Notes under the pieces: model-generated
What the model was told of the DNA's origin: nothing
The model's database searches: none
What the model saw: only the letters and a program-made list of their open reading frames with translations
Assembly (NCBI GenBank): GCA_951406725.2
Contig: OX597824.1
Coordinates: 33,480,001 to 33,544,000 of the forward strand
DNA from: Octopus vulgaris
Lineage: Eukaryota
Direction of reading: 5' to 3'
DNA length: 64,000 nucleotides
Translations under genes and position numbers: made by a program
In this document: one piece after another, positions 4,834 to 45,516 of the stretch
How positions within the stretch are numbered: the stretch's first letter is position 1
How the letters are laid out: each line of letters opens with the position of its first letter

Positions 4834-5010
4834 AAAGGGAAAGTTTACGAAAATAAACAAAAGACGAAGGCAGGTGGAGTACAAACAAACAAATGTATTA
4901 GTATAGCGCTCAGGAATAGAAAAAGTCTTTTACGTTTCGAGCGTACACTCTTCTACAGAAAGATACACAGAAAAAATAAGGAGAGAAAAAATGCGTGTGG
5001 GAGCTAACGA
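4834..5010 (-). mobile_element. Element E copy 1: short PLE pLTR-like element in (TA)n, with variant hammerhead at 4926-4963
   Basis: Similar to 15316-15506, 35501-35730 and 45341-45516; flanked by microsatellites; core CUGUAGA. Confidence 0.75.
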
Positions 5011-6111
5011 TATATGTGTGTGTGTGTGTGTATATATATATATATATATATATATATATATATATATATATATATATATATATATATATATATATATATA
5101 TATATATATATATATACTGAATGTATATAAATATATATAAATATATATGTATGCATGCGTGTATGTATGTATATGCACTATAGGTATTCGTACACGTATG
5201 CATATCTGTATGTACATTTGTGTGTGTGTGTGTGTGTGTGTGTGTGTGTGTGTGTGTGTGTGTGTGTGTGTGTGTGTGTGTGTGTGTGTGTAATTTCACA
5301 CTTCCATTTGACAGTAAATTTTCTAAAAAAATTAGTCGGATTTAAGAAATAATACCGCAGTAATCATTTCATTGTCAACCAAAATGATTTACTGGGAATT
5401 TTGCGCCAGAAAACTAGAGAGACATGCAATACTAGAATAGCGACCAGTTCTATGAAATATGATATTTCATTTGGAACTAACACTTGAATTCAGTTGTATT
5501 ATGCACTAAATTTATTTCAGAAAGTAATATAAATATCTGGTGAGAATATACAACCTACATTTGAAATAGTCTAACTCTTGGAGAAATGCGCGTTTTAAAA
5601 TATGTCACATTTGATGTATCCAGCTTAACATTTTAGTATTACACATTAGACTAAGGCAACGCTTGACAAGCGCTTTTAAGGATTTTAGTCGATTTTATCG
5701 ATTCCTAGCCTTAATTTTAGTCTGTTTCGTATTTTATCAATTTGTTAAATTGAAGTTTACTGTACATAAATGAGCACAACTTGATACACAGATTCACATC
5801 GATAACCATGAGAATAGATACTCATACATGCACAAACATGCACACAATCACATACAATGGTCTTTTGAACAGTTTCTATCTCAAACTTTCTCCAAAAGGC
5901 CACAGCTGTAGTATGGGTTAACTACTAAGGCCACAGCTGTAGTATGGGTTAACTACTAACTTTTTCCATTACTACATTTTACCGTGTTGTTGGGTTGGAA
6001 TCGAGGGTGTACGGTTGCCAAGTAAACTTCGTAACTATGCACCTCTGTTCACCAGATTATAAAAATATCACCCAATATTGAATTGAATTACTTTGAGCTT
6101 TTTCACATTCA

Positions 6112-6516
6112 TCTCTTTACTCTTTTACTTGTTTCAGTCATTTGACTGCGGCCATGCTGGAGCACCGCCTTTAATCGAGCAAGTCGACCCCGGGACTTAT
6201 TCTTTTGTAAGCCCAGTACTTATTCTATCGGTCTCTTTTGCCGAACCGCTAAGTAACGGGGACATAAACACACCAGCATCGGTTGTCAAGCAATGCTAGG
6301 AGACAAACACAGACACACAAACACACACACACACATATATATATACATATATACGACGGGCTTCTTTCAGTTTCCGTCTACCAAATCCACTCACAACGCT
6401 TTGGTCGGCCCGAGGCTATAGTAGAAGACACTTGCCCAAGGTGCCACGCAGTGGTACTGAACCCGAAACCATGTGGTTGGTAGACAAGCTACTTACCACA
6501 CATCCACTCCTGCGCC
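6112..6516 (-). mobile_element. SINE family A, full length
   Basis: Near-identical to the other family A copies. Confidence 0.9.
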
Positions 6517-8464
6517 TATCTATGGAGATTTTATTATCTTTTCTAATTGGTTTCATCACACAAATAGCAAAAATATTGTATTTTTATCACAGAAATGTAA
6601 GTCCTAGAAGAGAAAAAATATTGCCTTGTATTTCTCTATTCTTTAAAAAATATATACAACTTTATTCATATAGTGTGTTTCTATTTTAAATGCTGTTTAA
6701 TTTAGTTATCTTCAATCTGTATGATTTTAAAACAATTATCGGTTTATAATTCATATATTAAAATGATAATATATTTAAAGTCGTCAGCCAAGAAATGTTT
6801 AATTTCTTGAACTAACATCTGTAGTAATGTGAAAATATTATCTTAATTAGTGATTCTGGTCAAGAAAGGTAGGGGAAGCAACTTTGCAATTTAAATGAAT
6901 AAAGTGTAGAGTTACTGTAGCTTTTCATTTTGATGTTTGGCAACAGAGTAACATCTTTGGACAAGTCTTGGTTTTAATATCACAGAATAAGAAACTAACT
7001 CCTTAATCGCTGTTTCTTCTTTTTCTATTACTTCTGCATCCATCGTTTCTTTTAATCCTTTAGTCAAGAAACGAAGACGTCGTCTGTGATCCGTAACAAG
7101 GCATCCATAACGGGTGGGGGAGGAAGGAAAACAGTGGTCTTCGCTAAAGGCACCCCATGTTCCAGGGTGTTAAACCGGGGGACAGAATTAAATAGAGCAT
7201 AGCGGGACTTGAACTGAGAACACAAAGTGAAAAGACAAATGCCACAAGGCATCGTGTCCAAATTCTTATACCTCCGTTACCCAACCACTTTCGATTGGTC
7301 CTTTATCGACCCCGAAATGAGGAAAGGCAAAGTTGATCTTGCTGGGATTTGAACCGAGAGTGATTTGAACACGCTCTAATGATGCAGCCAATTCGTGGCC
7401 CCTAAATATGAAAAAGTCATCACACTTCCGATTGCTGAACATGCCGAAGTGCTACGATACTCGAACCCTTTAGGCAGATTTAAGATGAAATCGAAAAGGC
7501 ATTTAATGACATTTTAGATTGAGGAAAAACTTAGATATAATGTTTATATTCCGTGCCGATACATAATAAATGTGTATCTGAGCATTAGATACACATTAAT
7601 AAATAAGAGAAAATAGCTTTTGCGTGTTACAAGATTTCAAGGTTACTGAGCAATATGGTAACGGTCTGCTTCAACCAGGTAGAAAGGTAGAGTATTTTAG
7701 ATGAAGGGAAAACACCAAGTAGAACCATTCATTAGCAATGTAATTAAATTGAATTGACTTCACCGGGAATGAAAAGAGCGGGTAACAAACATTTTATCGA
7801 AAGTTATTCAGCTAAAATTGTAGAACAAAATGCTCTACACATTTCTCTATAGAGTTACGCACAAGCTCAATTGATATCAAAACATCAAATATTCTAAAAT
7901 GACTAAGATTAAAGAATATTAAGTCTGATTTCAATTAAAAAACAAAAAAAAAAGAGAAATGACCATTTCAGCAGCGATAATTTAAAGACGTTAAAGGAAT
8001 TATCATAGATTTGAAATTATTATTCTTATGTTAAATCTATTTATATTTCCTAGATATAATGATTGCATAATGTAGTTTTAAATTTTTGACATCGACATCA
8101 TACAAAAACAATTGCATATCTAATTTTTTTTAGACGGGTTATTTTGTCTTCAAATTACATAAAACATATAAAGAAGTCTGTAAATTTAAGCCATGATTTA
8201 AAATAAAGGTCTGTAATGCATATAAAATATATAAACTCTATAGATTGTCGTTTACTGTGTATCAGCTGAAGTGCATAAGATTTCCTTCGTATTATCTATC
8301 TCATTACTAGTTATTAGAAATTACCAGAAGCTACTATTTCGATGAATTTGTGAATTTAGTTATATATATATATGTGTGTGTGTCCGTGTGCGTGTGTGTG
8401 TGTGTGTGTGTGTGTGTGTGTGTGTGTGTGTGTATGTGTGTGTAGATAGATAGATAAACACAAA

Positions 8465-8985
8465 CACACACAATTTATAAACAAATTCATACTTTAGAAA
8501 TACAATAAATTGGCTGATTTATATGACATGCCAAGAAATCTTTCAAGCTCAGTACATATCGTTAGCTGTATTAAAAACCAGGACGTTGGTTTATGAGAAA
8601 AACAGGAAAAAAAAAAACGTGCAGAAAAAAAGCGCAAAAAAAGATGCAAAAAATGGGAAACGAAAAGAAAGAAAAGAAAAGTAAGAAAGCCAAGATCTTC
8701 AAAAAACCAAGAGGATCAAGGTCCTTATTTTTTTACTTTTTTATCTTTCTATCTTTTTTTCCCGTTCCACTTTTTGCATCAATCTTCTTCGCCCTTCTTT
8801 CTGCTCATCCTTTTTTCTTCGTGCTTTCACATAGACCATCGTCTCGGTTTTTAAATACATTCAACGATATGCACTGAACCTGAAAGATTGCATGGAGGTA
8901 CATGACACATTATATAGATTAGCCAAATTATGGTATCTCTAGAGCATGAAACTGTTAGTACTTTTTTTTTTTTGTAAATTGTGTT
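8465..8985. repeat. Long imperfect inverted repeat (foldback), centre about 8705
   Basis: For example aatctttcaagctcagtacatatcgtt (8537) versus aacgatatgcactgaacctgaaagatt (ending 8889); purine-rich left arm, pyrimidine-rich right arm. Confidence 0.75.
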
Positions 8986-43932: not shown

Positions 43933-44319
43933 ACTCATATCGGTGGAGAAAGCTGAGTTAAATCGGTGAAACATCACGAGTTCGACTTCTTAAGAAGTTA
44001 TATTCGTATGTATTGTGTCTGCATTCATCTTGCTGCTCTCGAAGGTCTTTCTGCAGTCTATGAAGGTGATACAAAGAAGCAACTTATACCCTTCCACTCG
44101 TTCAAGAATCAGAATGAATATATGGTATATCATGCTGTAGTTCTTCCGAAAACCTTCTAATTCCTTTGGTTGTTGGTAGAGAGTTCAATACTACGACCTT
44201 TGTAAATAGCTTTAATAATAATGTTCTGATTATAATATGATTTAATTAGAGTTCAAAATGGAACAATATTCTTATATTTTTCATTTTCACTCTTTTAATA
44301 AAACAAGACTGTAATTCTT

Positions 44320-44765
44320 AGATCTTTTCGGTTTGAACGGCAGTTTTTTCTAGCGGTGTCATATGAAATTGTCACCCATAAATATGACCCTAGTATCGAT
44401 CTATTGTATTTCAATCTGTTTTAGGGTTAGGATTAGTTAGGGTTAGGGTTAGGGTCAGGGTTAGGGCTGGGGGAAGGGTATCTTTTTTCCTTCACACATG
44501 TAAATAAACCCAATCTGTTTCTTAAATGAGGGACATATTCATACGGCACAGAATGTTTTTTTTACCTCAATAGACGCCAGTGATTGGTTGAAATTGCAGA
44601 AATTGAAGAAAAACAGCAACAAATATCTTACAAACTATAGACTTTTCTCAATAAAGTCAAGAGAAAAAGATGTTTTATAAACACATTCTACCAGTATACG
44701 AAGTTTAAAATTTTTTAGTTACCTAGAAATTATGTTAAAAACTGCCGTTCAAACCGAAGAGATCC
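44320..44765. mobile_element. MITE with internal (TTAGGG)n, opposite orientation to 25682-26121
   Basis: TIR gatcttttcggtttgaacggcagtttt; 8-bp TSD TAATTCTT (44312-44319, 44766-44773). Confidence 0.9.
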
Positions 44766-45340
44766 TAATTCTTCTTTCAAATATGAAATTACAACGTAGA
44801 ACAAGGATTTCCTCCATTCCTTAACAATTTTGTTATTGTACCATCTTATTCTCAGGTTTTATCTCACCCTCCCGTCAGCATTAAAGCGTTCCCAAAGTAG
44901 GTGTCACTTCTTCCAACGTTTGTAACAGTGCACACATTCACGCGCGCGCGCACACACACAATACACAGATTCATTCATTCATTCATTCATTTATTTGTTT
45001 GTTTATAATTCAACAAAGAAGTAAAAGCTTCGCATACTTTACTGTGATACAGTGATAAAGTTTTCAAAGTATTCTCTCTTTGTGTTTTTTTAACATAAAT
45101 CTCCTTGCATGAAACCTCTTAACCTTATATATATATATATATATATATATATATATATATATAGTATTTATATATATATATATTGAACTCCTTCTATATA
45201 ATAAATTAAACTGTACCTTACTTTTCGTTTTCACATATATATATATATATATATATATATATATATATATATTATTATATTTTTTTCATATTTTTCATTT
45301 TTTCATATATTATATTTTTTTTACATTCATTTCATATTTT

Positions 45341-45516
45341 CCACGCTCCTACACGCATTTTTTTCTCTCCTTGTTTTTTTCTGTGTATTTTCTGTCGAAG
45401 AGCGTAGGCTCGAAACGTAAAAGACTTTTTCTATTCCTGAGCGCTATACTAATACATTTGTTTGTTTGTACTCCACCTGCCTTCGTCTTTTGTTTATTTT
45501 CGTAAACTTTCCCTGA
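45341..45516 (+). mobile_element. Element E copy 4, variant hammerhead at 45387-45424
   Basis: Core CUGUCGA; ends in (TA)n. Confidence 0.75.

Follow-up and report, generated by a model that had tools for sequence, protein, structure and literature searches.

A hammerhead motif with U at core position 6 in the pseudo-long terminal repeats of a putative Neptune-type Penelope-like element of Octopus vulgaris

Neptune-type Penelope-like elements (PLEs) have one open reading frame (ORF), containing a reverse transcriptase (RT), a C-x4-C-xx-C linker, a C-terminal GIY-YIG domain and a DKG motif, and they form partial tandems of pseudo-long terminal repeats (pLTRs), have inverted neighbours, target (TA)n sequence and carry a hammerhead near the 3' end (Arkhipova, 2006, summarised in PMC8557442). 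The minimal hammerheads of PLEs described by Cervera and De la Pena (2014; PMC4209133) have a stem I of 4-5 bp, an extra A before G10.1, a G10.1-C11.1 pair and a palindromic four-base stem III; they lie in both pLTRs and occur mostly in solo truncated copies. Their consensus has A at core position 6 (A6), the searches that found them required A6, and the core variant described was U3-A8. Here we analyse a 64,000-nt stretch of the Octopus vulgaris genome (assembly GCA_951406725.2, contig OX597824.1, positions 33,480,001 to 33,544,000; hereafter the window), which holds four short non-coding units with a hammerhead motif of this kind. The element to which we assign them shares all of these Neptune and minimal-hammerhead features, except that its hammerhead core has U at position 6 (U6), and that stem II has 4 bp in the octopus lineage as against 7-8 bp in the hammerheads of PMC4209133. 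Our preferred reading, at a probability of roughly 55%, is that the units are truncated ends of a Neptune-type PLE whose U6 hammerhead is weakened but still selected, slow, and probably dependent on dimer formation or on protein.

PLE hammerheads, a dimer model for them and the U3-A8 variant are already published (PMC4209133, PMC6765202), and PLE hammerheads cleave poorly (PMC4209133, PMC11167929). The A6C hammerhead of phage Bcep176 likewise combines a natural pyrimidine at position 6 with a core that is complete in other respects; it cleaves, though slowly, and has a preference for Mn2+ (PMC3088659, PMC7151607). This is a single monomeric phage ribozyme with C6, whereas the octopus motif has U6, is of the minimal dimer type and exists in tens of thousands of copies. 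No natural U6 (A6U) hammerhead appeared in the portions of the literature searched, including PMC10085705 and PMC13725137, with Lunse et al. (2017) and supplement file 1 of PMC4209133 lying outside that search. In the green anole, the Poseidon element PAc (PMC11167929) resembles the octopus element in that its fixed internal 3' end lies about 85-100 nt downstream of the hammerhead, its target is AT-rich, and neither RNA ends nor insertion ends point to the cut site. It belongs to a different PLE clade, its ORF starts inside the hammerhead rather than about 720 nt downstream of the cut, and a change at position 6 goes unmentioned in the passages of PMC11167929 drawn on here. In the anole system, the one that has been reconstituted, the hammerhead cleaved only with its protein, and insertion did not need cleavage (PMC11167929).

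The identity of the four units was established from longer copies in the source genome, which is 2.8 Gb in size and rich in microsatellites. These copies (e.g., loci L020 and L031) run upstream from the motif into a frame encoding RT, the C-x4-C-xx-C linker and GIY-YIG, and the full-length layout is pLTR, 5' untranslated region (UTR), ORF (RT, CxxC linker, GIY-YIG nuclease) and pLTR, both pLTRs carrying the U6 motif. Searching at the protein level produced 18,659 first-look candidates; because the 150 that were scored were all 90-100% identical to the query, many with the same score, the matches indicate a young burst. Twenty loci chosen for long frames were fetched and scanned with a motif pattern that ignored position 6. 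All of their same-strand motifs had U6 (33/33), and 12 of the 20 loci carried two or three of them about 4.5 kb apart, flanking the ORF. Five loci (L098, L099, L101, L102 and L104) are stop-free from a common Met through the nuclease, the frame of L102 measuring 961 aa. Pfam placed RVT_1 above its cut-off and GIY-YIG below (E 0.007), with the motif of the latter visible, and 800 relatives were found at E<=1e-30, the named ones coming from sea urchin, snails and coral. Eight sequencing runs were covered, all in the form of contigs, which do not show ends, strand or circles. Contigs from three sequencing runs that we guess to be RNA cross the pLTR/5' UTR junction. The family was also present in runs under four organism codes, where no alternative letter occurred even at position 7 and which are thus uninformative on U6. 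Locus L105 (G000:C6:117391000-117400900) holds at least two full units head-to-tail with three identical U6 hammerheads.

An ORF with RT and C-terminal GIY-YIG, direct pLTR repeats with a hammerhead, and fixed 3' but variable 5' ends with inverted neighbours are the marks of endonuclease-containing (EN+) PLEs, and all were found here, together with the CX2-5CxxC linker upstream of GIY-YIG and the (TA)n insertion bias of Neptune; the assignment to Neptune follows the published description in domain order, linker and (TA)n target, the linker being common to Nematis too. Judged from these sequence features, the four window units are 5'-truncated 3' ends (pLTRs) of an autonomous Neptune-type PLE. 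The sequence-only reading had taken them for a non-autonomous retrozyme-like family, which was not borne out because longer forms have intact ORFs and the copies combine a fixed 3' end with scattered 5' ends.

We then considered whether U6 characterises the lineage as a whole. Exact matches to the motif with positions 6 and 7 left free numbered 16,332 genome-wide (reversed control, 0), among which A6 accounted for just 180 and C6 for 372, the remaining 15,780 being U6 and a few G6. Hand counts of the first 100 gave U96, A2, C1 and G1 at position 6 and U43, A23, C21 and G13 at position 7. When all eight 5' core positions were left free, 18,152 matches were obtained, and deviations in the first 100, again counted by hand, fell on C3 (2), U4 (4), G5 (4), N6 (4), G8 (5), A9 (0) and the extra A (1). 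A looser pattern recovered 24,476 U6 cores (control, 180), the first 100 of which all belonged to the U6 lineage. Canonical A6 hammerheads are present elsewhere in the same genome (16,086; control, 164), among them those of a sister family whose stem II is the same and whose downstream sequence is homologous, and related elements in metagenome contigs (80 loci, position 6 free) yielded ten hammerheads, all with A6. Because the other hammerheads of the genome and the relatives outside it carry A6, U6 is, on this comparison, the derived, lineage-wide state. The motif otherwise shows the features of a minimal type I hammerhead of the PLE kind, as had been claimed from the window, with stems I and II, G10.1-C11.1, an extra nucleotide after A9, a palindromic stem III and a UH cut site; A6 is the one core position that departs from the canonical sequence. 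The earlier suggestion that U6 is a family consensus rather than decay was thereby supported. No U6 hammerhead with both stems was seen among at least 120 pattern loci in viral contigs.

The oldest-type copies are less uniform at this site. In the first 100 of 759 matches position 6 was C in 15 and A in 8, above backgrounds of 6.5% and 2.7% at other T sites, an excess that may reflect distinct early C6 or A6 master subfamilies. However, diagnostic flank changes that would mark such subfamilies were absent from 51 aligned copies, and the 2:1 ratio of C to A matches genome-wide decay (372:180). Old copies with A6, U6, C6 and G7 also lie downstream of nuclease remnants (61-88% identity). Two old U6 copies, at G000:C1:3779215 and C1:4092822 (loci L240 and L190), share an altered stem II, which includes one U.U mismatch and is capped by a UUCG loop, suggesting that stem II was remodelled in a small, early subfamily. 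An abundant second family in the genome (e.g., loci L122, L125 and L127) has a canonical A6 hammerhead with a long stem II and a stem I of 5-7 bp, and often stands beside (TAA)n and a tRNA-like head.

Conservation of the motif was assessed in copies picked independently of the core, using a 19-nt anchor (20,661 matches) that lies about 55-60 nt downstream of the cut. From 97 of the first 100 places we recovered 97 anchored copies, 77 of them spanning the motif and 20 truncated in or after it. U6 was present in 75 of the 77 spanning copies. Position 7 (N7; U30, A24, C16, G7) and the cleavage nucleotide (H17; A59, U14, G2, C1) varied in blocks; three CpG columns of the motif showed 9-16% decay in scattered copies, and the other non-CpG columns deviated by at most 5%. 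Block-variable columns made up 2 of the 37 in the motif, namely N7 and H17, versus 15 of 49 in the flank between motif and anchor, where a column was called variable at a minor state of at least 12% (Fisher p=0.005). With the CpG columns set aside, none of the other 35 motif columns changed at the subfamily level (p=1e-4 versus the flanks). A tree was built with the motif columns left out, and parsimony placed on it 14 changes at N7, 6 at H17 and 2 at N6; from long- to short-branch groups of this unrooted tree (9 of 68 branches starred) N7 runs from U/C through G, A and C to U, and H17 flips between A and U. The variation at N7 is a succession of master subfamilies and not selection on individual short copies. 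N7 and H17 are also the free positions of the published hammerhead consensus (PMC4209133, supplement file 2), and the expectation that N7 would prove far more variable than its neighbours once CpG decay was accounted for was upheld.

With subfamily differences confined to N7 and H17 in the motif but present in 15 of 49 columns of the flank, the pattern suggests that the hammerhead has been under selection in the master lineage. The oldest copies adjoin nuclease remnants just 61-73% identical to today's protein, while G8, G12, A13 and A14 are fixed; the core has therefore endured through considerable drift of the protein, some of it due to decay after insertion. Compared with the A6 sister family, pair 4 of stem I shows a C-G/G-C swap, the only two-sided change among the nine pairs.

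Inserts sit in (TA)n and have a fixed 3' end about 100 nt past the predicted cut: 89 of the 97 anchor-picked copies met TA-type flank no more than 32 nt from the anchor, and their 5' ends were scattered. If the element works like Poseidon of the anole (PMC11167929), the nuclease would nick (TA)n DNA and RT would start internally, at the fixed 3' point, on uncleaved read-through RNA. Early drop-off of the RT would give rise to the short copies, and RT running on into the upstream repeat would produce the pLTR tandems. Across the 12 loci with pLTR pairs the mean was 2.3 differences within a locus versus 4.3 between loci, in keeping with a single segment having been copied twice, which either a circle or a template jump would explain. 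The pLTR-to-5' UTR junction (L102:2731-2750; also L269, L287 and L247) contains a short fixed TA run kept from the oldest to the youngest subfamily. This run could pair with the nicked (TA)n target and prime internal reverse transcription, a candidate mode that differs from the homology-free priming reported in the anole element.

Folding predictions offer one possible consequence of U6. In natural 49-mers that differ at position 6 only (L030 versus L051) the predicted energy was -10.8 kcal/mol with U6 and -8.4 kcal/mol with A6, and the probability of a U6-A15.1 pair was 0.98 versus 0 (0.81 and 0.97 versus 0 in two other pairs of copies). U6 is thus predicted to let G5-U6 pair with the stem III palindrome in a closed, inactive rod, stabilised by 2.4 kcal/mol. 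Such pairing would close the free RNA, making cutting rare or late and sparing the template. One may go further and propose that A6U is a selected latch, closed on the free template and opened by the element's own RT/nuclease or by Mn2+; we consider this extension unlikely.

Several observations weigh against selection for a working ribozyme. If the two CpG columns that reach 12% are added, the comparison with the flanks becomes 4 of 37 versus 15 of 49, and the subfamily changes are few, non-independent and drawn from a short alignment with the starred branches given above. Within the U6 lineage there is no covariation, stems and loop II being invariant, and most of the conservation could come from a constraint on the sequence itself, such as protein binding or a promoter. 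Activity was low for single changes in the CUGA turn when these were assayed by deep mutational scanning (PMC9901934). Insertion 5' ends show no clustering at the cut: (TA)n junctions fell at the cut in 6 of 32 distinct cases versus 5 of 32 at matched TA microhomology, which is no excess; only 1 of the 20 anchor copies truncated in or after the motif ended at the cut; and the 5' pLTRs of full-length copies reach hundreds of bases upstream of it. The long 5' pLTRs and unenriched junctions are consistent with uncleaved or re-joined templates. Nor does the predicted folding uniformly favour the preferred reading, as copy 1 of the window is not predicted to form the rod and the G7 subfamily forms it only weakly (0.13), and the dimer hammerhead (-15 to -16 kcal/mol) compares with -21.6 for two U6 monomers and -28.0 for the best dimer, a deficit relative to two monomers of about 6 kcal/mol for U6 versus about 1 for A6. 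Fold z-scores were not significant, with stability not above that of shuffles.

These points bear most directly on a serious but less probable alternative, in which the element is the same and the U6 hammerhead is catalytically dead, kept for binding or folding with the RT/nuclease close to where RT starts internally, or at the DNA level as a component of the pLTR promoter. The lack of covariation with an invariant loop II, the absence of a 5'-end excess at the cut and the dominance of the predicted rod all agree with it, as do the dispensability of hammerhead cleavage for insertion in vitro (PMC11167929) and the success of Naiad PLEs, which thrive without canonical hammerheads (PMC8557442). 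A binding site or promoter, however, gives no obvious reason for the pattern at N7 and H17: the sole two variable columns are those that a catalytic core tolerates, H17 avoids G at the subfamily level (2 of 76 copies), and G8, G12, A13 and A14 stayed fixed despite the drift of the nuclease, even if some of that drift is post-insertion decay. If instead there had been no selection at all, U6 would be a founder mutation, neutral in effect, of a master that proved successful, and N7 and H17 would simply be mutable like the flanks. Flank columns do change between subfamilies too, and the C and A counts at position 6 of the oldest-type copies, being above background, may point to a loose or mutable site; but the absence of subfamily change from the other 35 motif columns, and the passage of N7 through all four bases in blocks that track the flank tree, make this account improbable. 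A separate non-autonomous family of about 200 bp, spreading like a retrozyme through small circular RNAs, is still harder to credit. Animal non-LTR retrozymes resemble the window units in their short non-coding copies, type I hammerhead and kinship with PLE pLTRs, their PLE origin being already published (PMC7229834; 10.64898/2026.07.22.740005), and most octopus copies are short and non-coding, with no ORF remnant within the window. Those retrozymes are, though, defined as head-to-tail tandem repeats with a hammerhead in each unit and without an ORF (10.64898/2026.07.22.740005, PMC7229834), whereas the octopus units are truncation products of an ORF-bearing element, with scattered 5' ends and longer copies that extend into the ORF. 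Among 211 distinct copies there were no short head-to-tail arrays; the seven same-strand pairs within 1.5 kb were all separated by microsatellite or unrelated sequence or were of different subfamilies, and nine inverted pairs lay within 1 kb. With units not arranged head-to-tail and an ORF-bearing longer form at hand, a non-LTR retrozyme is largely refuted.

Within the window itself, four hammerhead motifs were found where the sequence-only reading had placed them, on the same strands, and a 22-nt pattern running from stem II to stem III matched four times in the window and never in 100 shuffles. Its description of the cores also stood: all four have U6, N7 is A, G, U and C in copies 1 to 4, and H17 is A, A, U and A, that is, A or U only. 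With redrawn boundaries the copies measure 176, 191, 226 and 169 bp. Copy 1 (4836..5011, minus strand) is a 5'-truncated pLTR end of the Neptune-type element within (TA)n and is of the A7 type, at the A7-to-C7 transition; its motif (4926..4963) has C3 at 4958, U6 at 4955, A7 and H17=A at 4931. The sequence-only reading had noted that the stem II change of this motif keeps a U-G pair; the pair is present, but since the C-to-T change falls at a CpG it is not evidence of compensation. Copy 2 (15318..15508, minus strand), likewise a 5'-truncated pLTR end, has (TA)n runs on either side, and its motif (15413..15450) has C3 at 15445, U6 at 15442, G7 and H17=A at 15418, with a C.A mismatch closing stem I, one of the two imperfect stems I that had been pointed out. 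Because copy 2 sits among C7/U7-type copies on the tree, its G7 is probably a private mutation, and a genuine G7 subfamily is present elsewhere in the genome. That just four copies should show four different N7 bases is partly luck, yet the genome-wide spread is real.

Copy 3 (35505..35730, minus strand) is a pLTR end of the young U7/U17 subfamily, with its motif at 35633..35670 (C3 at 35665, U6 at 35662, U7, H17=U at 35638). It shares 92% identity with the 3' pLTR of the full-length locus L102, its motif is identical over 49 nt to that of the full-length element, and it has a 31-bp duplication (35513-35575) in common with the ORF-bearing locus L110. Just upstream of it, at 35795-36010, an almost perfect inverted repeat, about 215 bp in length, forms one long hairpin, likely the foldback of another repeat; an arm of this hairpin also adjoins a sister-family copy at locus L141. 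Copy 4 (45345..45513, plus strand) is a 5'-truncated pLTR end of the C7 subfamily, and its motif (45387..45424) has C3 at 45392, U6 at 45395, C7 and H17=A at 45419, with a stem I of 4 bp that lacks one C and includes a U.G pair. Directly abutting its upstream side is a 29-nt piece (45316..45344, plus strand) that matches the 5' UTR of the full-length element at 27 of 29 positions (E 1e-8), likely a template jump during insertion.

An Rfam scan of the window gave no hammerhead family among the 150 of 181 matches listed, most matches being microsatellite-driven microRNA hits. Two further hammerhead-like motifs with A6 were seen. The one at 52652-52700 (minus strand) is of type I, with a stem I of 5-7 bp, a stem II of 4 bp, just two bases in place of stem III and the cut site, and (TA)n about 300 nt downstream, and is probably the decayed end of another PLE family; the other, at 46772-46830 (plus strand), has a 5-bp stem II, a 10-base palindromic stem III and a weak stem I. 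The window also contains a dispersed 222-nt family resembling short interspersed elements (4126-4347 and seven further copies, eight direct copies in all) and, at 48539-49412, a 324-nt inverted repeat of 98% identity.

The octopus genome thus offers a natural experiment, with a young autonomous U6 lineage beside an A6 sister family that has the same stem II, and with natural A6 and U6 copies that differ at position 6 alone. If the U6 motif does not cleave, it would clearly exemplify a ribozyme fold that has been kept for a task other than catalysis. If it does, the core of a hammerhead can accommodate a change ruled out by descriptor searches, and elements regarded as ribozyme-less may need re-examination. 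The latch, if true, would amount to a natural hammerhead switch, triggered by protein and built on a non-canonical core, that a very successful retrotransposon lineage has maintained throughout its history and that standard hammerhead searches would miss.

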